From the NCBI GenBank assembly GCA_965238125.1, contig OZ250179.1:2918723-2982722 (forward strand): 64,000 nt of DNA, read 5' to 3'. The translations under genes and the position numbers were made by a program. The notes below the pieces were generated by a model. It worked only from the letters and a program-made list of their open reading frames with translations, did no database searches and was not told where the DNA came from. This DNA is from Bryobacterales bacterium (GTDB lineage: Bacteria; Acidobacteriota; Terriglobia; Bryobacterales; UBA6623). Every line of letters begins with the position of its first letter. The first letter of the stretch is position 1. Of this stretch, positions 4,470 through 17,019 are shown piece by piece.

Positions 4470-5234
4470 CTGCCCCCTGGGTATGGTCCAGTTGGAATGA
4501 GAGAGCGACTGCGGGCATTCTTCCGATTCGGTCATGAGGCCGGCTGGATCGGCGAAAACCCCGCGTTCCGGCACAAGAACCCGCAGGTTACCGCACCCCC
4601 GACGATGCCGTTCGAGCGCGAGGAGATGATCCAGATCCTACGCGCCTGCGATCAGTACACAGACAATTACGGTCGCACAGGACAGGCGAACGCCAGGCGG
4701 CTCCGGGCGTTGGTGCTGGTGCTCAGATACTCGGGGTTGCGGATTGGGGACGGAGTCACACCTCCCAAGGATCGCGTCCGCGACGGGAAAGTATTCTTGT
4801 ATACGCAGAAAACCCGCGTGCCGGTCTACCTTCCCCTGCCCGCTTTCGTCGTGGAAGCCCTAGACGCCTGCCCGAGCACTGGCGCCGATTATTTCTTTTG
4901 GACGGGCGAATCGAAGAAGAAGAGCGCCGTGGGGGATTGGCAGCGATCCCTCCGCAAGCTCTTCAAGCTGGCCGGCGTGAACAGGGGCCACCCCCATCGA
5001 TTTCGAGACACCTTCGCGATAGAGCTGCTCCTACAGGGTGTTCCAATCGAGCGAGTCGCAGTCCTGTTGGGGCACTCACGCGTGAGGGTAACCGAAAAGC
5101 ACGATTCGCCGTGGGTGCGTGCTCGCCAGGAGCAGCTAGAGGCGGACGTGAGGCGAACCTGGGGCGAAGACCCCGCTGGTGCTTTCCGAAACGAAGGGTA
5201 CACCAGACGTACACGAGAGGGTCGATGCTGTTAA
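4470..5234 (+). pseudogene. Tyrosine recombinase/integrase C-terminal remnant
   Basis: ERLRAFFRF..GWIGENPA, SGLRIGD, HRFRDTFA, LLGHS motifs are present. The catalytic Tyr position reads KH-D-SPW (GAT at 5103-5105). The N-terminus is lost at the adjacent IS. Confidence 0.85.
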
Positions 5235-5253
5235 CTAGATGAAAACAAATAGG

Positions 5254-6078
5254 TTAAATTGGTGGAGGCTCTCGCATCTTCATTCGATCGGCGGGAATGC
5301 GCCATTCGGCCTCGTCGAGGTCGATTTCTGGCCACCGCGCCCTGCGCAGCTCGCCAGGGCGGACGAACACAAGGGGGGCCAGCCGCAAGGCGCACTTCGT
5401 CACGAAAAACCCTTCGTACGTGTCGATCGCACGAAGCAGCTCACCAATGCGCTTCGGTTCGATGATGGAGGCGTGGTGCCGTTCCTTGGGCGGAGGCAGC
5501 GCACCCCGAATATCGCCGGTCGGATCACGCTCCGCTCGGCCTGTGGCGATGGCGTACCGGAAGACCTGCCCGCAGTTCTGCATGGCGCGGTGGGCAGTCT
5601 CCACGGCGCCGCGGCTCTCTATCCGGCGCAGCACCGGCAGCAGTTCCGGCGCCCTGATGCTGGCGACCGGGCGCTTGCCAAGCCAGGGAAACAGGTCGTT
5701 CTCGAATCGCCGCAAGATGCGATCGCCGTGGCTTGCGACCCACCCCGGTGAGAACTTCGCGTGCCACTCCCGAGCGATGGCCTCGAAGCTGTCTGCGCCC
5801 GCGAGCGCGAGCTTCTGCGCCTTGCGGGCCTGCCCAGGATCGATGTCGGCGGCAAGCTGCTGGCGGACGGCGTCGCGCCGCTCACGGGCCGATTTCAGGC
5901 TGACATCTGGGTAGACTCCGAGCGAGAGCCGCTTTTCCTTGCCGCCGAAACGGTACTTCCAGCGCCACCATTTTCCGCCAGCGGGGCTGACCTCCAAGTA
6001 GAGACCTCCGCCATCGAACAACTTGCGTGTCTTGGCCTGCGGCTTGGCAGCGCGGACTGCGGTGTCCGTCAGCGGCAT
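5254..6078 (-). pseudogene. P4-like (IntA/CP4-57 type) integrase, C-terminally truncated
   Basis: MPLTDTAVRAAKP..KLFDGGGLYLEV..GGKWWRWKYRFGGKEKRLSLGVYP arm-binding domain, then FVRPGELR. The ORF stops at 274 aa (RMKMREPPPI*), before the HxxR and Tyr motifs. It lies immediately downstream of tmRNA. Confidence 0.9.
5260..5269 (-). repeat. att-like copy of the tmRNA 3' end (TGGTGGAGGC)
   Basis: 10/10 identity to 6246-6255. Preceded by an AT-rich stretch and GTACAC-containing arm-like repeats (5197-5213). Confidence 0.65.
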
Positions 6079-6080
6079 GA

Positions 6081-6130
6081 GGGGGCAACTCCGGTTCGAC
6101 GTCTCCCTGTTGCCCCCAGAGTTGCCCCAC
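6081..6130. promoter_or_regulatory. Putative integrase arm-type sites (GTTGCCCCC x2, inverted GGGGGCAAC)
   Basis: Two direct copies and one inverted copy lie between the integrase start and the tmRNA 3' end, as expected for a P4-type att junction. Confidence 0.5.
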
Positions 6131-6245
6131 CTGTGGGGTCAGCTTCCCCTGGAAGAAACGGGACCATACCGGACAGTATAACAGGTGCAAGCCCTCTATT
6201 GACAGTGTCTTATCGGCTTTGCTGGGATCAGGTTGGACTTGTTGG

Positions 6246-6598
6246 TGGTGGAGGCGGCGGGAGTCGAACCCGCGTCCGGAAAAGTCTATCGCGAAGAGCC
6301 TACATACTTAGTCCGCTCGAAAGTCTCGGCCGGCTCCTTGGAACGGACAAGAAAGAACCAACCCAGCCCGATTAATTTCAGCTTACGGCTCCGGACAGAA
6401 GCCTGCGGCCAATCCCGCGAAATGACACCCTTCCCCGCCGTGCGGGCCCGACGGAGAGAGCGCGCCGACCTAATTAGGCGGCGTAGGCTAACTGCGTGTT
6501 GTTATTGGCAGTTGTTATGGTCCGATCGTTTAACGGGAGCTCGGAACCCGGTATGCCTCTTCACGACGGTGCAATCCCGTCGAATCCGTTACGCCCCC
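6246..6598 (-). ncRNA. ssrA: tmRNA
   Basis: 5' GGGGGCGTAACGGATTCGAC and 3' GGGTTCGACTCCCGCCGCCTCCACCA form an Ala-type acceptor stem with a G-U pair plus a T-arm. The internal tag ORF at 6474-6509 encodes ANNNTQLAYAA*. Confidence 0.98.
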
Positions 6599-6686
6599 CC
6601 TTTCCTACTTCTCTTATGATACCGCGCCGCGCAAATCCCGGCCGCGCCTGAAGGCCGATTCCCAAAGCAGCGGCTCTGGCGGTCGG

Positions 6687-6760
6687 CCCGCGTTTCTCAT
6701 CGCGTGACGAGGCAAAGTGCGGGAGAGGCCTGGCAGTACGAGGCGTGCGCCGCTTGACGC
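6687..6760 (+). repeat. Partial copy of the MITE at 25610-25799
   Basis: 63/74 ungapped identity to 25610-25683 by manual alignment. Confidence 0.75.
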
Positions 6761-6778
6761 TGCGCGGACTTCCCGCCG

Positions 6779-6803
6779 GTAGCGACCGGCACTCGTGCCG
6801 GTC
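6779..6803 (+). repeat. REP-like palindrome GTAG-C-GACCGGCAC-TC-GTGCCGGTC
   Basis: GTAG tetranucleotide followed by a perfect 9-bp stem. Confidence 0.65.
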
Positions 6804-6861
6804 CCAGCCCACACTTGACACAACCTTTCAGCTTGTCTCTCGATCTTCTACATTGGCTCCC

Positions 6862-6887
6862 AGTGGGGCAGGTCTCCAGGCCTGCCC
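6862..6887 (+). repeat. REP-like palindrome AGTGGGGCAGGTCTCCAGGCCTGCCC
   Basis: An identical 26-bp copy lies at 55355-55380. GTGG is followed by a GGGCAGG/CCTGCCC stem. Confidence 0.75.
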
Positions 6888-6918
6888 TTTCCTCACGCCG
6901 CCCAATTGAAGTTTCAGG

Positions 6919-7482
6919 CTATATTCCCTTCCAGCGCGCCGCTTCGGGATCGGGGAGTCCCAGTAGGTCCAGCATTCGATCGACAAAGGCTTTGATGATG
7001 TCGTCGACGGTCTTGGGGCGCTGATAAAACGCCGGCATCGGGGGGGCGATCACGGCGCCCATTTCGGCCAACGCGGCCATCGTTCGCAGGTGACCCAAAT
7101 GGAGGGGCGTCTCGCGCACAGCCAGAATCAGCCGGCGCTTCTCCTTCAGCGTGACGTCGGCGGCCCGGACCAGCAGGTTCGAGGTGATACCGCCGGCGAT
7201 CGCGGACATGGTGTGGATCGAGCAAGGGGCGATCACCATCCCGTCGGTTGGGAATGACCCGCTCGCGACTTGCGCGCCGATTTGCTCGTTCGAATACCAA
7301 GCATCGGCCAGCGGCTTGATCTCGGCCAGAGCGGCGCCGGTTTCCTGGTGCAGGGTCTTTTCGGCGGCTCGTGTAACAATGAGATGTGTTTCGACGCCTT
7401 CTCGATGACGCAACGATTCCAGTAGCCGGACACCATAGATCGAGCCGCTGGCGCCGCTGAGTCCGATCACGATTCGTTTCAA
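6919..7482 (-). CDS. ubiX: Flavin prenyltransferase UbiX
   Basis: MKRIVIGLSGASGSIYG, ASGS, MVIAPCS, RAADVTLKEKRRLILAVRETP, PPMPAFYQRP. Confidence 0.96.
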   Translation of the reverse strand: MKRIVIGLSGASGSIYGVRLLESLRHREGVETHLIVTRAAEKTLHQETGAALAEIKPLADAWYSNEQIGAQVASGSFPTDGMVIAPCSIHTMSAIAGGITSNLLVRAADVTLKEKRRLILAVRETPLHLGHLRTMAALAEMGAVIAPPMPAFYQRPKTVDDIIKAFVDRMLDLLGLPDPEAARWKGI

Positions 7483-7522
7483 GCTACCTCCGGTCCGCCC
7501 TGCGCGGAACAGCCCCGCTTGC

Positions 7523-7589
7523 TTTGTTCTGAAAACAGAACAAAACTGCTAAATGCTGTCTTTCCTGTTGTTCCGGAAACCTCTATAAT
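7523..7589 (+). promoter_or_regulatory. Perfect palindrome TTTGTTCTG-AAAA-CAGAACAAA (7523-7544) and TATAAT -10 box (7584-7589) upstream of the XRE regulator
   Basis: Read directly in the AT-rich divergent ubiX/HTH intergenic region. Confidence 0.5.
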
Positions 7590-7983
7590 CTCAGAGTACG
7601 TCATCGATGGACGTTCCGTGCGGTTTTCTGAGCTTGTTTTAACATGGATCCGGGCCTCAAACTCAAGAAAGTTCGCGAAAAGCTGGGGTTGCGATACCGT
7701 CAGGTCGAGCAGGCGAGCAACCTCATTGCACAGCGCCACCGCAACTCGGACTACGTGATCGGCCTGAGTCGGCTGGCCGACATCGAAAACAAGGGGGTGG
7801 TCCCCAGCCTCCATCGATTCTACAGCCTCTGCGCCATTTATCGGCTGGACCTGACCGAGGTGCTCGAGTGGTACGGGATCTCCATTTCCAACATCTGGAA
7901 GGATTCGCAGACTCTGGCGCCTCCCGCTACTCACTTGGTGCCGACTCACGATGGTGCTCGCAGCTCCGTTTCGATGCCGCTTA

Positions 7984-9076
7984 CTGAGTCTCGCATAATA
8001 TACTGTCAATCGAGACAAAGAGAAGACTGTTTCCAGAAAGCGGTAATCAAGCGCGGTTTGCGGCGCATTCGCCGCAGCGCTTTGCGGGCGCGCTCGTCGA
8101 GTTCCCAGTAGTCCTTCGGGCAGACGTTGGGCAACTCGTGCTGCTTCCAGTACGCCCAAATGTATTCCACCGGGTTCAACTCCGGCGCATAGGGCGGCAA
8201 GTACTCCGTTGCGATGTGATCCTCGGAGAGCTGGATGAACTCCCGCACCAGGCGGCTGCGGTGCGCCGGCAGCCGGTCCCAGACGATCAGCAGTGGGCCG
8301 TCGATGTGGCGCACCAAAGCCTTCAGGAAGTCGATGACCTCCAGCTCGCCGATCGCGCCGGGATAGAGCCGGAAGTAAAAGTTGCGCAACGTCAGCCCGG
8401 CCGACACCGACAGCTTGTCCCAGTTGAAGTTGAACTCCAACACCGGTGTCTCGCCGCGCGGCGCCCAGGTGCGGCAACGATGCGGCTTCTGACTCAATCC
8501 GCTTTCGTCGATGAAGACGATCGTACGTTCTTCTTTGCGGGCTTTTTTTTAATGGCCGGCCAAGTCTTGCGCTGCCAGCCGCGGATGGCCTCTTCGTTGC
8601 GCTCCCGCGCTTTGCCGACGGGCCGTTGCGGGCTCCAACCGAGCGCCCGCAGGATCTTCCAGACATGGCCCTCGTGATAGCGCACGCCGAACTCGTCTCC
8701 GATCAGACGAGCGACCCGCGGACAGCTCCACAGCGGCGTCGGGAAGCCGTGCGCCTCGGGGCCTTCCAGCAGCAACGCCTCGAGGCGTTCGAGCTGCGCG
8801 GCGTGCAACAGCGGCTTACGGCCGGCGCGGCCGGCCTGGCGCAACCCGGCTTCGCCGTCACGCCGGTATCGTCGCAGCCACTCGCTGACGCTTTGCCGCG
8901 CGACCTTCAATCGCCTCGCTGTCTCGGACTGACTACAGCCTTGCTCGACCAACCGGATCGCTTTGAAACGGCGCTTCTCCAGGGCCTCGAAATCCCGCCG
9001 TACGCCTTTTGTATTTCCCATACATACAAAGACGTACGTACCCCAAAAAGATGTCATTTTATTTTGCGAGACTCAA
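7984..9076 (-). mobile_element. IS630-family element, apparently intact (transposase 8006-9021 via -1 programmed frameshift)
   Basis: 1093 bp with TIR (C/T)TGAGTCTCGCA(T/A)AATA and TA duplication (7982-7983 / 9077-9078). The HTH orfA is followed by an A8 slippery site (8543-8550) and orfB with IDES / VWDR / ELNPVE DDE residues. Confidence 0.93.
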
Positions 9077-9487
9077 TAAGCTCGAGCCGGGCCTGGATTT
9101 TCGCGAGAGCACCTACCTGAGTCGCATGATTCAGCAGTGGGGCAAGGTTCCCTTAAGTCTGTTGGACACCCTGGATCTTGAAGATCACCGCTACGGTTTC
9201 ATTGGGACCGACGACTATATGATGTATACCCGTTGGTGCGGCCCGGGTCGTTGGTGCAAATCGATGATTCAAGGACCAAGATCCGCCAGACGGGTTGGAC
9301 CAACGAGTTCGAGCGTCCCATCTACTTCTTCGAACTGCGCGACGCCTACGTGTGCTCGTGGTGCAACGTGAGCGGGGAGCACCTCATTCTGCAACCCCAC
9401 CACGGGTCGCCGTGCGGGCCGATGGTCTTGCGGAACCCGAGCCAAGTCGACGTGATTGGACAGGTAATCGGCGTGGCGATGCATCTA

Positions 9488-10580
9488 TTGAGTCTCGCAA
9501 AATAAAGTGACACCTTTTGGTGTTGCCGTACGTATTCTTATGTATGGGAACACCGAAAGGAAAGCGCCGTGATTTCGAAGCATTGGAGAAACGCCGTTTC
9601 GAAGCGACGCGTTTGCTCGATGAAGGACTCAATCAGTCCGAAACCGCCAGGCGTCTGACAGTCGCCCGCCAAATCGTCAGTGAGTGGCGACGACAGTACC
9701 TGGCGCAAGGCGAGGCCGGGCTGCGCAAGGCCGGCCGCGCCGGCCGCAAGCCGCTATTAGACGCCACGCAGCTCGAACGCCTGGAGATCCTGCTGCTCGA
9801 AGGCCCCGAGGCGCACGGCTTCCCGACGCCGTTGTGGAGCTGTCCGCGGGTGGCTCGTCTGATCCGAGACGAGTTCGGCGTGCGCTATCACGAGGGCCAT
9901 GTCTGGAAGATCCTGCGGGCGCTCGGCTGGAGCCCGCAACGCCCGGTCGGCAAAGCCCGCGAGCGCAACGAAGAGGCCATCCGCGACTGGAAGTGCAAGA
10001 GGTGGCCGGCCATTAAAAAAAAGCCCGCAAACAAGACCGCACGATCGTCTTCATCGACGAAAGCGGATGGAGTCAGAAGCCGCATCGTTGCCGCACCTGG
10101 GCGCCGCGCGGCGAGACGCCGCTGCTGGAGTTCAACTTCAATTGGCAGAAGCTTTCGGTGTCGGCCGGGTTGACGTTGCGCAACTTTACTTTCGGCTCTA
10201 TCCCGGCGCGATTGGCGAGTTGGAGGTCATCGACTTTCTGAAGGCCTTGGTTCGCCACATGGACGGCCCGTTGATGATCGTCTGGGACCGCTTGCCGGCG
10301 CATCGCAGTCGGATGGTGCGAGAGTTCATTGAACTCTCGCAAGGCCATATCGTGACGGAGTATTTGCCGGCGTATGCGCCGGAGCTGAATCCGGTGGAAT
10401 ACATCTGGGCGTACTGGAAACAGCACGAGTTGCCGAACGTCTGTCCGAAGGACTACTGGGAACTCGACGAACGTGCCCGCAAAACGCTGCGGCGCATGCG
10501 CCGCAAACCGCGCTTGATTACTGCTTTCTGGAAACAGTCTTCTCTTTGTCTCGATTGACAGGATATTATGCGAGACTCAA
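9488..10580 (+). mobile_element. IS630-family element, second copy (transposase 9544-10558, extra frameshift)
   Basis: 1093 bp with the same TIRs and TA duplication (9486-9487 / 10581-10582). A8 slippery site at 10015-10022. One T is missing near 10185 (AACTTTACT vs AACTTTTACT in copy 1). Confidence 0.93.
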
Positions 10581-10607
10581 TAAGCTACCACCGCGAGGAA
10601 AACAGGT

Positions 10608-11072
10608 CTACGTCGAAAGTTCGTTCCGCAGTACGTCTAAGATGAGTTCCAAGTCGGAGATGTAGAGCAGGCGTTCGGCCTCGCGCGTCTTGATGGGGAT
10701 CAAATTGTTGTAGGGGGCGAGAGTGAACCAGGTTCGCAGAATCGTTTCCCGGTCGTCTTCCAACGATCGGACGTATTCCTCCAGGTCGTCGCGCTGTCGT
10801 TCCAGGGGGAAATTCAGCCATTCTCCGAAAACACGTTCGTGACTTTCGCGCAAAATACGATTCGCTTCCTCGGTGGAATAGCGTTGGGCCAGCCCATAGT
10901 GGACGTAACCGCCGGAGTTTTCGTCGCGTAATCCCGATAAGTAGACAATCTTCCCAAAGAGGGTCGGAATCTGTGCAAGCGTGCGCCTCCACAGATCGTC
11001 CATGGCGAGATTCCGATCAGAACCGTCCGGGCTGTTTGGCGGCTCGGCCGGGTTGTTGCCGGTTGGCTCCAC
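10608..11072 (-). CDS. Hypothetical protein (154 aa), convergent with the HTH gene and divergent from the peptide operon
   Basis: Protein-like composition (DDLWRRTLAQIPTLFGKIVYLSGLRD...ILRESHERVFGEWLN); no recognised domain. Confidence 0.75.
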   Translation of the reverse strand: MEPTGNNPAEPPNSPDGSDRNLAMDDLWRRTLAQIPTLFGKIVYLSGLRDENSGGYVHYGLAQRYSTEEANRILRESHERVFGEWLNFPLERQRDDLEEYVRSLEDDRETILRTWFTLAPYNNLIPIKTREAERLLYISDLELILDVLRNELST

Positions 11073-11492
11073 ATCTCAATTCTAACGCCCTGATCGGGCC
11101 GACACAATCCACCAGAGGCTCTTCGGCCGTCTCGGCATCGAGTCGAGAACCCTTGCGTCGGAATCGGCTTTCGCTTTGGCGCTCTAGGACGGGCGGGGCC
11201 GGTCGCTGGACGCAACCTTCTGAATCCTTTTCCGGGGAGGAGGCGGGGCGCGCCTTGATCGCTGCGGAATCGCTTTGGATACGCTTTCGGAAACGCCGGG
11301 GACAAGCGCGTCGGGGGTCGAATGGGCGTGTCGTGGGATCTTCCAAGGGCGCTCCGAAACGATGTGAAAGAGTTTTATGTGCCGGAGCGTTCCGCCTTTG
11401 AAAAAAACAAGCTTTTTCTCCAATCTTTTGGCGACGATCGATTACGATTTGTGGCGGATGAGCCATCTAGTTTCCACAAAAGGAGAAATGCA

Positions 11493-11636
11493 ATGTTGAA
11501 GAACCTGCTCGTGATTGGAGCCCTGTTAGGAAAGCTGGCGATCGTGGGTCTGGCCCCTCAGCCCTCGGTCGGGAACGAAGCGGATTGCCCCTATTGTCCG
11601 ACGCCGGAATGCTTTCCGGGCGACTGCGAATGCTGA
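11493..11636 (+). CDS. Small secreted Cys/Pro-rich peptide (47 aa)
   Basis: AGGAGA RBS at 11481-11486, 6 nt before the ATG. Sequence MLKNLLVIGALLGKLAIVGLAPQPSVGNEADCPYCPTPECFPGDCEC: a signal-peptide-like N-terminus and 5 Cys in the last 16 aa. Confidence 0.8.
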   Translation: MLKNLLVIGALLGKLAIVGLAPQPSVGNEADCPYCPTPECFPGDCEC

Positions 11637-11780
11637 AGGCGCGCACCGGGAGAAGTGTTTCGGTCGTGATGTAAGTGATTTTAACTACAATGGGGTGGAG
11701 TTCTATAAAATCTTTCTGCTCCATTGTGGTAATCTGGTGGCGTCTTTTGACAATGGGCGGTGCAGTTCCGGCCGGACCGG

Positions 11781-11808
11781 GACTTGACGCCCTCCTGACT
11801 TGACGCCC
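11781..11808 (+). promoter_or_regulatory. 12-bp direct repeat GACTTGACGCCC x2 immediately upstream of the 7-TM gene
   Basis: Exact copies at 11781-11792 and 11797-11808. Confidence 0.5.
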
Positions 11809-11810
11809 GA

Positions 11811-12587
11811 ATGACAGCCGCTCTCGGATATGGGTTATACCTTCTGCCCGGCGTGGCACAGCTGGCCTGGGCCGCGCGTCTACGGGGCTTGCGTCTGTTG
11901 TCCAGCTATCCCTCTCTCGCTCTCTATCTTCTGTTTTCCACTCTCAGTTCGTGGCTTGTGCTGACGGCGCACTACCTCTATCGCGGCAGTGAAGCGTACG
12001 GCTGGTTTTTCGTTGTGACTCAGCCGGTGGGCTGGACGCTGTTGTTATGCGTCGTGCTGGAGATCTACCAACGGATGATCCGGGGCTACGAAGGCTTGGG
12101 CCGGATGGGGCGGTTGGTGATGTACGGCGCGGTGGGCGCCTTGGCTGTCGTCTTGACGTTCCTATTGTTGCTGGATAAGCCCGACGGCGCCCTGGGACAG
12201 TGGCGGAACTTTTGGTTCCGCCAAGAGAGATCGGTGTATTTGGGCCTGTGTGGGTTGAGCGTAGTTCTGGCCGGATTCGGCGCCTATTTTCATCTGCGCG
12301 TGGGGAGAAACGTTGTTGTGGTGTTCAGTGCTTTCGGAGCGTTGTTTGTCGGACAGGCTCTTGTTTTGACGTTCGTGGAGCATTTTGAAGGAATGGTGGC
12401 CTGGAAGGATACAGCCCTGCCCCTTTGGCACGGAGCCTGTTTGCTGTGGGGAGCGGCGGCCTTTTCGCTACGCGGCGAAGACAGGCCGGTGAAGGAATCC
12501 GCGGCGTTGACGGCTGCGGCGGAACCTGTCTTGGTGCGGCAGCTGGAGGTTCTGAACCGGGTGCTGCTAAGGATGTTACGACCATGA
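11811..12587 (+). CDS. Hypothetical polytopic membrane protein (~7 TM, 258 aa)
   Basis: About seven hydrophobic segments, YPSLALYL after TM1, and an amphipathic C-terminal helix QLEVLNRVLLRMLR. No kinase or other cytoplasmic output domain. Confidence 0.85.
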   Translation: MTAALGYGLYLLPGVAQLAWAARLRGLRLLSSYPSLALYLLFSTLSSWLVLTAHYLYRGSEAYGWFFVVTQPVGWTLLLCVVLEIYQRMIRGYEGLGRMGRLVMYGAVGALAVVLTFLLLLDKPDGALGQWRNFWFRQERSVYLGLCGLSVVLAGFGAYFHLRVGRNVVVVFSAFGALFVGQALVLTFVEHFEGMVAWKDTALPLWHGACLLWGAAAFSLRGEDRPVKESAALTAAAEPVLVRQLEVLNRVLLRMLRP

Positions 12588-13162
12588 CGACCCTATTGCT
12601 GGTGTCCGTAATTCTCGTCGTTCTTCCCTTGCTTTTGGGAGGAATCGTGATGCGTCTCGGCCGCCGCGCCGAGAGCGTGGACGGCACGGCGGTGTCGTCG
12701 TTGATGGAGTCGATGAATCGCGAACTGAGCTATCTTCCGCTGCAGCGGTTGCTTTTAGGCGGGGACATCGAGTTTCTCCGTGATCAGCCGGGATTTCACG
12801 CTCGGCTGGAGCGTCGTTTTCTCCGGGAGCGGCGTACGGTGGTATTGACCTATCTTCGTCAGATGCACCGGGATTTTGATTTGTTCTCGGGATTCTGTCG
12901 TGACATAGTCGTGCGCAGTCCCAAACCCGGGCTCGCGGTGCTCATCGTCAAGAGGACGATTCTGTTTCACTTTGTTTACGCGGTTTTGATGATCAGCTGC
13001 CGTGTGGGTTCCCCGACTGCGGCCCGGACGTCGTTCGAGCGTCTTAGCGGCGCGATCGCGGATTTGCGACGCGAAGGTGCGCACAAGTGGGCCTTGACAG
13101 CGCGACCGTCGGAATCCTGGGCGTCTTCCACCACGGCGGCGGGGTCGGCGATGGGCGCGTAG
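12584..13162 (+). CDS. Hypothetical membrane-anchored protein (192 aa)
   Basis: ATGA overlap with the upstream stop. N-terminal TM MTTLLLVSVILVVLPLLLGGIVM, then YLPLQRLL..DIEFLRDQPGF..ERRTVVLTYLRQMHRDF. Confidence 0.8.
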   Translation: MTTLLLVSVILVVLPLLLGGIVMRLGRRAESVDGTAVSSLMESMNRELSYLPLQRLLLGGDIEFLRDQPGFHARLERRFLRERRTVVLTYLRQMHRDFDLFSGFCRDIVVRSPKPGLAVLIVKRTILFHFVYAVLMISCRVGSPTAARTSFERLSGAIADLRREGAHKWALTARPSESWASSTTAAGSAMGA

Positions 13163-13849
13163 GTCCGAGGGGGGCCGGAGATCCCCGGCACATTTGTTCC
13201 AACACTGCCGGCTCCAGGGCCGGCGTCTTGGCCTGCCAAGGCTGGGCACGTGCGCGGTGCGCACCCTGATAGCCTGCGGTGCAAATCCGACTAAGCGAAG
13301 CAGCGGGGACAGGGTCGTCTCCATGAATCCGCCGCATTCGTAACACCGCCATGAAAATGGGTGTCGACGGGCCGAAGGGTCGGGCGCGAGGTTCCTGCCG
13401 CCCTCTCAGGCTTGCCCGAGTTGGGATTCTACTCGCGGCTCCGCCTGCCGGCTCTGCCCCGGGCTGGATTGCCGCCACCGCTTTACGGCTGTGGCCGTTT
13501 GCGATTTCACGAGCGGTAGCGTGATCCCTGAAACGATCAAGGGCGATCTTCGAAGGCGTCCGCTTCGCGCCAAGAACACTGACTGATTGAGCGGAACTGA
13601 TTCAGTCGGCACTTGGGACAGCGCTCCCATTTTTTCACGGGCCCCGGGATCGGACCAGGTTCCACCGGTCGTCTTGACTTGGTTGCTCCGGGCGATCCGG
13701 AAGTAATTGCTAAGTTTCTGAGGCGTCTAACCTTATATACTAAAGCTGCAGTCTGTCGGATGGTGGGAAGCGGCTGGCTTCCGCCTTGATCCGATTCCCC
13801 TTGGGCTTGCCGTGGTTGGTGGAACCGCGCGAGCTGTCCGTTTAGCCGA

Positions 13850-15976
13850 ATGGGTGGAATGCGCAATCTCCCCGACGTCCCGACCCTGGATGTCTTTCTT
13901 GGGCTGGTTTCCGCCATTCTGCTATTGCTGGCTCTTGTGTATGTGGCCCGCGAGCGGCCTGAGACGTTCCGCGGTTTTCGGAGAAGGCCGCGGCGACGCG
14001 AGCACCACCCGGTCATCTTTCAAGATGTCTTCCTGCCGGATTCCAATCGAGGACTGAGTTTCATCGGCTCGCTGTTTTGCCACATGGTGGGCTTTTCGTT
14101 GGTCCCGTGGATGCAGTTTGTGGCGCCGCGGGTTACGATGCCCGACGCGCGGGCGCCCGAAATCGTGGAGTTGGACTACCGCATCCCGGACATTCCCGTG
14201 GTTGCGCCCGAAGACCTCTACGAAGAGAAGCAGGACGAGGACTCCTCCGAAGAACGCGACAACGGCGGGAGTGAGGAAGAAGGGGCGAGTTCCAAGCCCG
14301 CCGAAGCCGCCGCCGAGAAAACTCCGAAAAAGGGCGAGGAGGCTCGGGAAGCGCCTGCTCCACCGCCCGAGATCGCGACCGCGCCCGAGCCGCCGAAACC
14401 CGAGCCCCAGGTCTTCCAACAAGTTTTCAAGGTCATATTGCCCGAAATCGTCGGCAAGCACCGCTCACTCAAAGAGATCATTCTGCAAACGAACTCTCTT
14501 CTCGAATTGCCTCCCGAGTACGCGCCGCAATTGCCGCCGATATTGGCCTGGACCCCGAACCCTTTACCACTCGAAAGCGGCATGGTCATCGAACCCGGAC
14601 ACCAACAACCCGAGACCATCGAGCGCTGGGAACTGCCCGAGCAGGTCTCGCACCTCGCGGCCCCGAACCGGGAAATCGTCTTGGCGGATCTCAGCGTGAC
14701 GCCCGTGCCTGTGCTGGTCGAGGACCCGGCGCTGCCAGTCCCGGCGGCCAATGTCCTTCCGCTGGCGGGCTTGGAGATGCCCGAGCCGGTGCAGCCTGAA
14801 CTGCCTTCGCTGGCCGAAGGCGAATCGCGGACGACTCTGATCGCCCTCAGCCAAGAACCAAACCCGCTCACTCCCTCATTTCTGCTGGAAATGGGATTGC
14901 GCTTGGGATCGCTCGACAGCGCGATGGAAGAGGTCGAGGATCCCCCCGCTCAGAGCGAGGCGGACGAAGAAGAGCCGGAACAACCTCCCGAGCCCGAGCC
15001 ACCCCCGGAGCCTGAACAACGGCTCGACGAACAGCCGGTTGAAACGGCCTTGGATACCGCGGACGAGACCGCCGATCCCACGCCCGAGCCGACCGACGCC
15101 CCGCCGACGATCGTCGAGAGTGACGCCCCAATCACCTATGACGAGGTGGCGCCGTTCCCGGCGGAGTTCGACCTTTTCGCCGCGGAGGGTGTTTCCGATG
15201 TGGCCCCAATGATGGCGCAAGCGGTCGACTTCGAAGCTGAAGGCGAGGGACGGGGCGGAACCGCGACGGAGGGCGCCGGTATGGACGAAGAAGTCGCGCC
15301 GGTGGAAGTGGTCGACATTGCCTCGGTGCGGGTCGGAGGGTCGGGAGACCCGAGCCTCGGCGGGCCGGCCATCCTGGAACTGCCCGGCTCCGGAGGGCCC
15401 GGCACGGGGAATGAAGGCGAAGGAGAAGGCAAAGAGTCGCCTGAAGCAAACGAAGGCGACGGCAAGGGGACCCGAACGGGCAGCGGCACGCTGAAGCCTT
15501 TGTCGAGAAAGCAATACGGCATTATTTTGGTGTCGAACGTGCAAACGACTCTGACCAACACAGCCGGCATCCTCAAGGGCAACCCGATCTATATGATTCA
15601 CCTCGATGTCCCCGAAGCACTGCGGAAATGGACGTTGCAATTTTGTATTCCCGGTTCCGGCTCGCGAAAACTCGATACGTCGACAGGCATAATTCGGATA
15701 CTTCCCAAGAAGAAAGTCGCGCCGCCGTTTCCACTAGAGCAGAAGCCGCTGCGGCTCGAGGCGGCGCCGGCGACGCCGGAGCGGCCCTTGGAAGTGGTGA
15801 TTTACGCGATCGTCGACGAAGAAGGCGGATTGGGCAACCTGAGGGTAGTTCATGGCGCGGACCCGCAAACGGACAACACGATCCTGGCGCATCTGGAATC
15901 GTGGGATTTCTTGCCGGCCTTTCGCGGAGAAGAGCCGGTTCTCGTGGAGGCGCTGTTCGGCATTCCACTCCCGTAA
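13850..15976 (+). CDS. TonB-like protein: two N-terminal TM segments, long acidic Pro/Glu-rich linker, C-terminal TonB_C-like domain
   Basis: C-terminus VVIYAIVDEEGGLGNLRVV..DNTILAHLESWDFLPA..GEEPVLVE resembles TonB_C. EPEP/PEPE repeats. Confidence 0.65.
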   Translation: MGGMRNLPDVPTLDVFLGLVSAILLLLALVYVARERPETFRGFRRRPRRREHHPVIFQDVFLPDSNRGLSFIGSLFCHMVGFSLVPWMQFVAPRVTMPDARAPEIVELDYRIPDIPVVAPEDLYEEKQDEDSSEERDNGGSEEEGASSKPAEAAAEKTPKKGEEAREAPAPPPEIATAPEPPKPEPQVFQQVFKVILPEIVGKHRSLKEIILQTNSLLELPPEYAPQLPPILAWTPNPLPLESGMVIEPGHQQPETIERWELPEQVSHLAAPNREIVLADLSVTPVPVLVEDPALPVPAANVLPLAGLEMPEPVQPELPSLAEGESRTTLIALSQEPNPLTPSFLLEMGLRLGSLDSAMEEVEDPPAQSEADEEEPEQPPEPEPPPEPEQRLDEQPVETALDTADETADPTPEPTDAPPTIVESDAPITYDEVAPFPAEFDLFAAEGVSDVAPMMAQAVDFEAEGEGRGGTATEGAGMDEEVAPVEVVDIASVRVGGSGDPSLGGPAILELPGSGGPGTGNEGEGEGKESPEANEGDGKGTRTGSGTLKPLSRKQYGIILVSNVQTTLTNTAGILKGNPIYMIHLDVPEALRKWTLQFCIPGSGSRKLDTSTGIIRILPKKKVAPPFPLEQKPLRLEAAPATPERPLEVVIYAIVDEEGGLGNLRVVHGADPQTDNTILAHLESWDFLPAFRGEEPVLVEALFGIPLP

Positions 15977-16138
15977 AGAGAATCGGGCGCTTGTGATATC
16001 CTGCCGGCAGAGCGTTGTCAATCGTCGGATTCTCCGGCCGGCGCCCTCACTGAAGTACGAATTGTTGTCATGAAGTGTTGTTTCTCCGGTAGAGAAACCC
16101 CGGCTGAAAAGCTTTTCATTCTGTATTACCCTCCCGCG

Positions 16139-16810
16139 ATGGTGCATCAGAAGTGGGAGAAATCGGTGTACGCATGCGCGAGCGCGGGCGAAGCTTTGCG
16201 CGAAACGGCGGACCGATTACGCGGGTTCTTCCGCCGCTACGTGTTGGGGCGCAAACCGATCCTGGGCTTCGCGGTGGGCATCGCGGGCTTAGTCCTGTTC
16301 GGCTCGTGGCTGGATATGGCTGCTTCGGGTTGGGAGCAGGCGGGTTTTCTTCACCGTTGGGGACAACTTTTCGTCGCGCTGATCTTGGTGTCATACGGGT
16401 CTTTCCATGTCCGGCGGTTTTTGCGCCGCCTGCGGCGTTGGAAACAAGGAGGCCGTGAGACCGTGCGGGCGGAACTCGAAGAGATCGAAAAGCAGATTGC
16501 GCGCTTGCCCGACAACCCGACGGCCGAGGAGGCAGCGGATAGTATGCGGCGACGATGTCCCGAAGTGCTCTCTCTGCTGGCTTTTGACGGTACCTACTTC
16601 CACGCTTTCACCTACCTTGATTTCGTGATGTTCTCCGAGCTGAAGCACCCAGCCAACCAAGAAGAGTTGCCCGATAAGCACAGCTTGAACCGAGACGCCT
16701 ACTACGTGGGGGACGTGGTCTACGACAACTGGCGGATCTTCCACAAGGACGACCGCGAGGTCGAGGACCCCCGCTTTGTCGGCAGCGGCGGACGGCGGGG
16801 CGTCATCTAA
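16139..16810 (+). CDS. Hypothetical membrane protein (2 TM)
   Basis: Two hydrophobic helices followed by a soluble domain; start uncertain (ORF open from 16070). Confidence 0.55.
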   Translation: MVHQKWEKSVYACASAGEALRETADRLRGFFRRYVLGRKPILGFAVGIAGLVLFGSWLDMAASGWEQAGFLHRWGQLFVALILVSYGSFHVRRFLRRLRRWKQGGRETVRAELEEIEKQIARLPDNPTAEEAADSMRRRCPEVLSLLAFDGTYFHAFTYLDFVMFSELKHPANQEELPDKHSLNRDAYYVGDVVYDNWRIFHKDDREVEDPRFVGSGGRRGVI

Positions 16811-17019
16811 CGCCAAGCCTTTTTCGGGCGACCATCATTCCGCGGAAGAAAACAAAGAGCGGAACCGCCTCGCTGAAAAACCCCGACGCGACCGCCCCCT
16901 GGGCAAGCCCAAATGGTGACGCGCTTCCAACTTGGACCTTGCAACGTAGCCGGTTGAAATAAAGGGGTTTGGACCCCGGTGTGACGCGGCTTCAGAGCCC
17001 CGAATTCATCAAGAATACG

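Follow-up and report, generated by a model that had tools for sequence, protein, structure and literature searches.

The stretch of DNA analysed here (64,000 nucleotides, positions 2,918,723 to 2,982,722 of contig OZ250179.1, assembly GCA_965238125.1; hereafter the window) belongs to a member of the Bryobacterales. To our knowledge, few groups of bacteria are more abundant in soil; they are difficult to grow in culture, and almost nothing is known of how they sense their surroundings or each other. A preliminary description of the window, made from its letters alone, had proposed a peptide-signalling cassette of five genes between ubiX and a gene for a 708-residue protein, consisting of an 'XRE/S24-like' regulator, a protein of no recognised family, a secreted cysteine-containing peptide, a seven-helix membrane protein and a translationally coupled membrane partner. 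We found that these genes are part of a conserved six-gene block, ubiX included, which is a cassette specific to Bryobacterales, and that the window holds a local, damaged copy of it. The regulator, the 131-residue protein, the seven-helix protein and the anchored partner are called REG, X131, TM7 and PART, and the loci compared are numbered from L001. The features of the window copy are as follows.

6919..7482, minus strand: ubiX, divergent from REG; Pfam Flavoprotein (2e-47) and NCBIfam NF004685
7524..7543: O1, operator-like palindrome in the ubiX-REG intergenic region
7644..7983, plus strand: REG pseudogene fragment 1, codons 1-113, XRE-type helix-turn-helix (HTH)
7984..9076, minus strand: insertion sequence (IS) of the IS630 family, copy A, with orfA at 8494-9057 and orfB at 8006-8497; TA at 7982-7983 and 9077-9078
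9079..9487, plus strand: REG pseudogene fragment 2, codons ~114-249, S24-like region
9488..10580, plus strand: IS630 copy B; TA at 9486-9487 and 10581-10582
10583..10645, plus strand: REG pseudogene fragment 3, final 20 codons and TGA stop
10608..11003, minus strand: X131, 131 residues from the ATG at 11003, 154 residues from a GTG at 11072
11386..11405: degenerate O2-like site, 87 nucleotides (nt) upstream of the peptide ATG
11493..11636, plus strand: peptide precursor, 47 residues, AAGGAG Shine-Dalgarno sequence
11811..12587, plus strand: TM7, 258 residues, seven-helix membrane protein
12584..13162, plus strand: PART, 192 residues, N-terminally anchored, single-pass

The open reading frame (ORF) listing and direct reading of the sequence showed that the peptide, TM7 and PART genes run in the same direction and that the ATG of PART overlaps the TGA stop of TM7 (ccATGAcg), as had been described. 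The 154-residue gene does diverge from the peptide and occupies 10608-11072 on the minus strand when its GTG start is used, while its close relatives are annotated from the ATG at 11003, giving 131 residues. The proposed five-gene set was thus recovered for the peptide, TM7, PART and X131 genes but not for the regulator, whose ORF is not intact.

The regulator had been taken for an intact gene, and the 2.6 kb following its ORF had been passed over. A repeat search between this ORF and X131 returned two inverted 1093-bp copies of an IS630-family element, 87.6% identical to each other and each flanked by a duplicated TA. The family assignment is based on a DDE_3 transposase, terminal inverted repeats and the TA target duplication, all of which were present; the transposases carry DDE_3 and HTH_33 domains (copy A also HTH_32) and match the NCBIfam IS630 transposase model NF033545. 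Only codons 1-113 of the ORF at 7644-8111 belong to REG, sharing 96% amino acid identity with residues 1-113 of REG from L005, and the remainder is read-through into copy A. Removal of both copies in silico joined segments 7644-7983, 9079-9487 and 10583-10645 into a restored REG, collinear with the intact 269-residue orthologues at 92% nucleotide identity. One lesion was left: at 9225-9228 a surplus TA throws the gene out of frame. It appeared as a single 2-nt gap in the DNA alignment with L005, L007 and L001 (TATA in the window, TA in the intact orthologues), and tblastn placed the REG pieces 9078-9227 and 9218-9487 in two different frames. In the window REG is a pseudogene with three lesions and three dead fragments. 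The convergence of the regulator on the 154-residue gene, also described earlier, holds for the ancestral state, in which the 3' ends of REG and X131 overlap by 38 nt (10608-10645, with the REG stop at 10643-10645), but not for the window, where REG is fragmented.

Further damage to REG was observed in related loci. In L006 an IS 99.5% identical to copy A (5310-6402) breaks REG at a third position, and in L007 an inversion (5147-11622) with breakpoints inside REG and inside the 700-residue gene flips X131-peptide-TM7-PART relative to ubiX. The contigs of L004 and L005 encode the identical TM7 protein and yet have REG intact. All three IS insertions lie at YTAAG, a motif that occurs at 7.4 per kb in REG against 0.63 per kb in the window, an enrichment of about 12-fold. 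A hotspot of target sites would suffice to account for the recurrent insertion into REG, and selection for the loss of REG need not be invoked. These events do show that REG loss is tolerated. Since REG is a pseudogene here, the route first proposed, from an exported peptide through the membrane proteins to an XRE regulator, cannot run as written in this genome.

Two observations concern the same region. The extra TA at 9225-9228 could be an excision footprint of the Tc1/IS630 type; its site is not YTAAG. The convergent 3' ends of REG and X131 overlap by about 20-45 nt in most loci, which would permit coupling by antisense transcription or transcriptional interference.

To place the window copy among its relatives, loci were gathered from metagenome contigs bearing TM7 and X131 homologues, and a profile scan for the TM7 subclade over one genome per GTDB species added 33 loci. 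All but 2 of the record titles of these 33 name Bryobacterales, Bryobacteraceae, Solibacteraceae or Acidobacteriota, the exceptions being Rhodospirillales and Candidatus Acidiferrales. The earlier impression that the gene set recurs in Acidobacteriota was therefore correct for the Bryobacterales, according to these 33 loci and the tblastn table. The order ubiX(-) REG(+) X131(-) TM7(+) PART(+) was kept in about 35 of 48 loci in that table; the ancestral block also includes the peptide gene (+) between X131 and TM7, and its REG has about 265 residues. Local tblastn alignments (best of two queries) gave identities of 57-74% for REG, 31-46% for TM7 and 33-49% for PART. Beyond the block the genes vary from locus to locus (NB-ARC/TPR, aldo-keto reductase, pheA, SprT-like, RND efflux, Fic). 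A gene order shared by about 35 independent loci whose flanks differ exceeds chance.

The boundaries of the block differ from those first drawn. The gene ubiX, regarded earlier as a mere flank, adjoins REG in every complete locus and is linked to it as tightly as any cassette gene. Its product scored 256.5 bits against the UbiX-family model NF004685 (cutoff 188) and only 38.8 bits against a CoaBC-type flavoprotein model, and is a bona fide UbiX flavin prenyltransferase. The match above the NF004685 cutoff also excluded a LanD/HFCD decarboxylase acting on the C-terminal cysteine of the peptide. On the other side, the 708-residue gene (13850-15976) and a gene for a 246-residue membrane protein (16070-16810) accompany the cassette only in the close clade of the window, with L012 retaining just a weak match to the former, and both are outside the conserved unit. 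Peptide and PART occur jointly beside TM7 wherever the flanks allow: L026 contains the peptide-TM7-PART trio without REG or ubiX, and five TM7-only loci (L025, L034, L036, L040, L045) have neither peptide nor PART.

In agreement with the preliminary description, Pfam and NCBIfam searches and the synteny table returned no kinase, response regulator, AgrB or ABC exporter gene in the conserved block. Genes for RiPP (ribosomally synthesised and post-translationally modified peptide) enzymes were lacking there as well, and kinase and regulator genes were present solely in the variable flanks of some loci. The peptide, X131, TM7 and PART had no match in Pfam, NCBIfam or PADLOC, so that none of the four was assigned to a characterised family of unrelated function, the outcome that would have spoken against the original proposal; the PADLOC result also led us to reject a defence system. 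Profile searches of REG, X131, PART and TM7 against the PDB gave nothing significant. Literature searches did not return a description of an equivalent cassette, and the family libraries likewise lack its families. We consider the cassette new as a gene system and by homology part of no known system.

REG is an XRE-type HTH protein with weak but consistent matches to HTH_31, HTH_19 and HTH_3, and its family (3456 clusters at 90% identity, E<=1e-3) is annotated solely as HTH regulators. No TPR match was found with Pfam and NCBIfam. The label 'XRE/S24-like' was thus sound in its first half, whereas the second is weak: matches to Peptidase_S24 (PF00717) appeared in 5 of 22 members, all of them sub-threshold (the best with E 0.059 and 13.5 bits, cutoff 23.3) and situated where such a domain would be expected in the C-terminal half, always at residues ~147-186 or extending to 244. 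The serine position in D-W-S-M-Y-P is occupied by S, M, F, T or L among orthologues and by M in the window clade, a conserved lysine at the expected position was not seen by eye in the aligned orthologues, and no conserved Ser-Lys catalytic dyad was recognised in REG. The comparison with E. coli LexA by hhalign returned a probability of 1%. A C-terminal half that is S24-like and non-catalytic is a reasonable but unproven interpretation of these patterns.

The peptide of the window is 47 residues long (MLKNLLVIGALLGKLAIVGLAPQPSVGNEADCPYCPTPECFPGDCEC). Small ORFs upstream of every TM7 gene were screened for a hydrophobic N-terminus and cysteine. Essentially all loci having PART yielded a candidate, each with a strong Shine-Dalgarno sequence in front of it. 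TM7 homologues with a partner gene therefore have an upstream Cys/Pro peptide, as the preliminary description had predicted, and the TM7-only paralogues do not. With a K/R n-region, a hydrophobic core of 12-16 residues, often an A-x-A site and a short tail (for example ...DWHDPIPHCFPCPYSK, ...GPIPGCDPCPWVR and ...ELPWPGCFPCRVTVAGR), the precursors look like carriers of a Sec-type signal peptide. The motif P-x-P-x-C-x-P-C was found in 26/26 peptides of the general clade, and most family members contain only two cysteines. The motif given earlier, P-x-P-x-C-x-P-x-x-C, turned out to be the variant of the window clade (the window, L001, L005, L007, L012 and L015) and not that of the family. In this clade a further CxxC pair is added on the N-terminal side and the second loop is enlarged (D-C-x-x-C-P-x-P-x-C-[FW]-P-G-x-(x)-C), and the window peptide is of its specific five-cysteine form, ending ...ADCPYCPTPECFPGDCEC. 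Here a proline follows the likeliest cleavage site (GLA|P), so the mature end is only approximate. Identical or near-identical peptide genes are arranged in tandem in L018 (two), L014 (three) and L019 (four).

The AlphaFold2 model of TM7 (pLDDT 90.7, pTM 0.87) showed seven transmembrane helices (3-26, 34-57, 61-89, 94-121, 127-159, 166-191 and 196-217) and a C-terminal helix (237-255). In the window sequence Arg and Lys cluster in the tail and in three loops (22-34, 87-101 and 159-167), from which the positive-inside rule predicts a periplasmic N-terminus and a cytoplasmic C-terminus. An exhaustive profile search returned 1280 clusters (50% identity) at E<=1e-3 and 694 at E<=1e-10; the homologues listed all have about 255-270 residues, and the named taxa among them are all Bryobacteraceae. 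Conservation was higher in the inner half than in the outer half (mean 0.54 vs 0.37, Mann-Whitney p = 1.4e-10). Conserved inner residues are Y33, E84, G95, N167, G222-E223 and, in the C-terminal helix, L245/N249/L252, with E84 and N167 invariant; the conserved outer residues are Y63, P72, W75, R140, F179 and E193. TM7 had no Pfam match at E<=1 and none to the 7TMR-DISM or SdpI families. A Foldseek search of the PDB gave transmembrane domains of G-protein-coupled receptors (GPCR) only, the best being that of GABA-B (E 8.8e-3, TM-score 0.48). These matches were weak (none at E<=1e-3, TM-scores 0.4-0.56, root-mean-square deviation 7-12 Å), and we read them as probably reflecting a generic seven-helix bundle and not homology.

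PART consists of a single N-terminal transmembrane helix followed by a conserved domain of about 150 residues, presumably helical, with invariant Y50, P52, D61, L65, Q68 and G70 and the motif YRPMERL..ED..FL..QPG. The positive charges directly following the helix suggest that this domain is cytoplasmic. X131 is an orphan cytoplasmic protein, whose AlphaFold2 model is all-alpha (pLDDT 91.4) and had no structural neighbour in the PDB or BFVD; its 84 homologue clusters, all at least 50% identical, are annotated as nothing beyond 'hypothetical'.

Comparison of the ubiX-REG intergenic regions revealed a perfect palindrome, TTGTTCYGAAWWCRGAACAA (TGTTCYGAAWWCRGAACA), which in the window reads TTGTTCTGAAAACAGAACAA (TGTTC-N8-GAACA, 7524-7543). 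The distance of this site, O1, from the ubiX start is 20-45 nt, and the promoter facing REG, which in relatives has TTGCC (-35) and TATAAT (-10), follows about 20 nt downstream of it. The pattern GTTCY-N6-RGAAC had one match at the O1 place in nearly every locus containing the ubiX-REG region and only about 8 matches elsewhere in ~0.59 Mb. Scores of the 21 O1 sites listed ranged from 21.5 to 36.6 with a position weight matrix (PWM) built from the O1 sites, and a scan with this matrix identified a second site, O2, typically TGTTCYGAAWWCRGAAAA, in the X131-peptide intergenic region. O2 is a full palindrome in L029, L030 and L039 and scored at least 10 in 18 of 22 tabulated loci, always at a distance of 82-103 nt before the start codon of the peptide gene; among random 250-nt windows about 3% reached this score, a figure that includes windows overlapping true sites. 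The REG-less trio L026 had no O2.

Since an operator-like palindrome is shared by both promoter regions, the regulator side and the peptide side appear to be linked by co-regulation, and the two divergent promoter regions are very probably under the control of one dimeric factor. The prime candidate is REG, an HTH protein of the type that binds palindromes and one whose gene always adjoins the best site. The O2-like site of the window, GCGTTCCGCCTTTGAAAAAA, keeps one half-site, has its spacing off by one and scored about 0 (0.8); the same weak variant occurs in L001, L002, L004, L005 and L007. With REG dead and O2 degenerate, the intact peptide, TM7 and PART genes are probably expressed free of REG control in this genome.

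The reading that we prefer is a peptide-linked, kinase-independent envelope circuit. As a whole relay, with contacts between the proteins that we infer, it has in our judgement a probability of about 0.4. REG, an XRE-type factor whose S24-like domain would be non-catalytic, would bind O1 and O2 as a dimer and control both the ubiX/REG side and X131/peptide-TM7-PART. After export, the CxPC peptide would be oxidised to a small disulfide loop in the periplasm, and a TM7-PART complex would read either its presence or the redox or metal state from the periplasmic side. TM7-PART would then alter the activity of REG through their conserved cytoplasmic surfaces, with X131 as an accessory and a kinase not involved. 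Such logic may be likened to that of SdpC-SdpI-SdpR, where a membrane protein sequesters an autorepressor. A more specific version appears rather unlikely, namely that this is the first described peptide-responsive pathway of Acidobacteria, in which a CxPC mini-peptide read by a GPCR-like seven-helix protein and its partner would control an XRE/S24-like regulator, with neither kinase nor proteolysis, and a small regulon including ubiX.

Several observations weigh against this circuit. X131 is absent in one subclade (L031, L032, L037, L038, L041, L044), and the translational coupling of TM7 and PART is found only in the clade of the window. Since a single bacterial order supplied all the loci, the synteny is in part due to common ancestry. 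In L013 the corresponding ORF (reverse strand, ~7650-7800) has a signal peptide and NPIPH and no cysteine, which is either decay or an error of long-read assembly. On its periplasmic side TM7 has only very short loops. The host, being an acidobacterium, is assumed to have two membranes, and a Sec-exported peptide of about 13-20 residues would then end in the periplasm; this weakens a classical quorum-sensing reading and makes a periplasmic or autocrine ligand more likely than a diffusible quorum signal. Both operator-like sites precede the -35 hexamer of their rightward promoter, a position compatible with repression as well as activation. Finally, the exact 18-mer, present in at least 120 metagenome loci, is not confined to the cassette. 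Among the matches listed, cassette genes are found in 33 loci, a gene for a small AT-hook-like protein directly follows the site in 15, and several loci have two sites 83-87 nt apart; the remaining listed loci are heterogeneous, and some are expected by chance according to our estimate. The palindrome could thus belong to another, broader regulator, and either the regulon may be larger than the cassette or the site may be that of a broader factor.

Among other explanations, a periplasmic redox or metal module, though unlikely, is the closest rival. The CxPC peptide would buffer or carry a thiol-reactive species or a soft metal (Cu, Zn or Hg, for instance), TM7-PART would handle it, for example by reduction, loading or transfer, REG would set expression only, and the five-cysteine form would be metallothionein-like. 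Thioredoxin has a CGPC active site and ResA/TlpA-type proteins have CxPC, and the invariant C-x-P-C spacing resembles such CxxC sites of thiol-disulfide oxidoreductases. The window clade adds a CPYC pair and further cysteines, whereas most family members have two cysteines only. Tandem peptide genes would suit a need for dosage, and in a two-membrane host the peptide would remain in the periplasm. TM7 offers invariant polar residues within the membrane (E84, R140 and N167), but among its conserved positions in the broad TM7 alignment no Cys/His pattern of the kind expected for redox or metal handling was apparent, only C210 recurring in the closest homologues, and its conserved surface is cytoplasmic rather than periplasmic. 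Copper-binding, Sec-exported cysteine peptides are known in the bufferins (PMC11626156), but a metal-responsive regulator, P-type ATPase, Dsb or CcdA-type gene is absent from the block. It is less probable still that the peptide is a small disulfide bacteriocin from which TM7-PART protects the producer, with REG regulating as in SdpRI. An exported cysteine peptide, a polytopic membrane protein and a regulator do resemble the composition of SdpC/SdpI/SdpR (PMC2910880), peptide genes are found in tandem and the TM7-only paralogues could be orphan immunity genes. Against a bacteriocin, the peptide core is invariant over an order-level range, while bacteriocins usually diversify; the conserved block includes no dedicated exporter or outer-membrane route, and a Sec product of 13-20 residues is expected to stay in the periplasm of its producer. 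Moreover, PADLOC and SdpI-family matches were lacking and the block is chromosomal, vertically conserved beside ubiX and not on a mobile island.

Two further explanations seem very unlikely to us, in equal measure. One is a RiPP-like maturation with TM7 as a membrane enzyme modifying the peptide, possibly connected to UbiX chemistry. A short precursor with an invariant core, multiple copies, the strict linkage to ubiX with a shared operator and the invariant E84 and N167 of TM7 would fit this idea; the standard nature of UbiX as a prenyltransferase and not LanD/HFCD does not, nor does the absence from the block of radical-SAM, MNIO/DUF692, YcaO, lanthionine synthetase and RiPP-recognition-element proteins. 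The fold search with TM7 retrieved generic seven-helix receptor bundles only and no enzyme, and a Sec signal implies that export precedes any modification at the membrane. The other explanation is synteny without shared function, the genes being neighbours by descent and the palindromes sites of an unrelated global regulator. It is favoured by the origin of all loci in the Bryobacterales, by the many other contexts of the 18-mer and by the possible loss of X131. It is opposed by the difference between loci of everything outside the six genes, the strict co-occurrence of peptide and PART, the fixed distance from O2 to the peptide ATG together with the absence of O2 from the REG-less trio, and the overlap of the REG and X131 3' ends in most loci.

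The proposed circuit was also compared with described systems. The nearest in logic is Sdp, a kinase-free arrangement in which an exported peptide acts through a polytopic membrane protein on an autoregulated DNA-binding protein encoded next to it (PMC2910880). SdpI binds its ligand on the outer face and the regulator on the inner face (PMC2910880), and the conserved surface of TM7 is the inner one. There is no homology between the two systems: REG is of XRE type and not of ArsR type, TM7 is a seven-helix orphan as opposed to the six-helix SdpI, and the cassette has the additional PART and X131, no SdpAB, a host assumed to be two-membraned and a peptide of 13-20 residues from a plain signal-peptide precursor. 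With agr and Com the cassette shares a small, cysteine-containing exported peptide encoded beside a multi-pass membrane protein; it differs in having no AgrB/ComQ-type processing enzyme, histidine kinase or response regulator and in using a Sec signal and not a dedicated leader. Consistently, neither kinase domains (HATPase_c) in TM7 and PART nor an AgrB-type match in any cassette protein were detected with Pfam and NCBIfam. The RRNPP systems (Rgg, PlcR, PrgX, AimR) are similar for the presence of an XRE-type HTH regulator beside a small exported peptide gene, but REG has a weak S24-like signature and no TPR domain, Opp-type import is not implied and a membrane pair stands between peptide and regulator.

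LexA boxes of some phyla use half-sites similar to those of O1. REG resembles LexA, CI and HdiR both in this palindromic target with TGTTC/GAACA half-sites and in an N-terminal DNA-binding domain followed by the C-terminal signatures G-x-(E/D)-D-x-S-M-x-P...PG-x-L-V-x-(I/V)-D and ...VIGQVxGV. It departs from them in the sub-threshold PF00717 match, in its variable serine nucleophile and in the lack of SOS genes beside the sites. A LexA/SOS box was rejected, as no lexA or recA homologue lies beside the ~170 sites examined and the flanking genes are heterogeneous; a literature search did not find a report of such a LexA/SOS box in Acidobacteria. Bufferins share with the peptide a small Sec-signal precursor, conserved cysteines and a periplasmic end point, but they are defined by adjacent MNIO (DUF692) and DUF2063 genes (PMC11626156), neither of which is present in the window cassette or in any conserved block. 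In common with GPCR and 7TMR-DISM proteins, TM7 has seven helices and a C-terminal helix in the cytoplasm, and the positive-inside rule gives it an N-out/C-in topology. The structural matches are as weak as for any up-down seven-helix bundle, no sequence family is matched and TM7 has neither an attached output domain nor a G-protein analogue.

The cassette is widespread in Bryobacterales, and four of its proteins are of no described family. The cluster can be tested experimentally through its shared operator, through the unvarying core of the peptide and through genomes in which the regulator has been lost naturally. If the signalling reading is true, bacterial signal transduction would gain a kinase-independent receptor type on a seven-helix scaffold; should the redox or metal reading prove right, the cassette would represent a new periplasmic thiol peptide system.

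Some additional observations regard the palindromic sites and their surroundings. The AT-hook-like protein has 80-112 residues (L049, L101, L103, L126, L139, L147 and others), with the 18-mer about 15-50 nt upstream of its gene; it contains the motifs ILEELKQERAQIEEAILSLERLA and RRGRPP and may be a further member of the regulon. Pairs of sites 82-87 nt apart were found away from the cassette in L026 (12210-12307), L070, L095, L102, L143 and L148, that of L026 lying between a response-regulator-like gene and a secreted metallophosphatase-like ORF, as judged by eye. A second conserved element, AGTACTC...GTATAGTACTC, is located between O2 and the peptide start in L023, L029, L030, L031, L039 and L047; part of it, TATAGT, is a likely -10 hexamer, and the element may serve as another binding site. 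The promoter and terminator scan of 10900-13500 gave nothing exceeding the shuffled expectation.

As for the flanking genes, the 708-residue protein had no Pfam or NCBIfam match and the 'TonB-like' label given to it earlier was not confirmed; it shows an acidic, proline-rich middle of low complexity and a conserved C-terminal stretch of about 90 residues. An Rfam scan of 5000-17000 returned only a tmRNA gene, situated to the left of ubiX (6246-6598, minus strand). Next to it lies a truncated P4-type integrase ORF (5254-6078, minus strand, 274 residues) covering model positions 7-277 of 413. The tmRNA gene and the truncated integrase, on the side of ubiX away from the cassette, look like what is left of an island that had integrated at ssrA.

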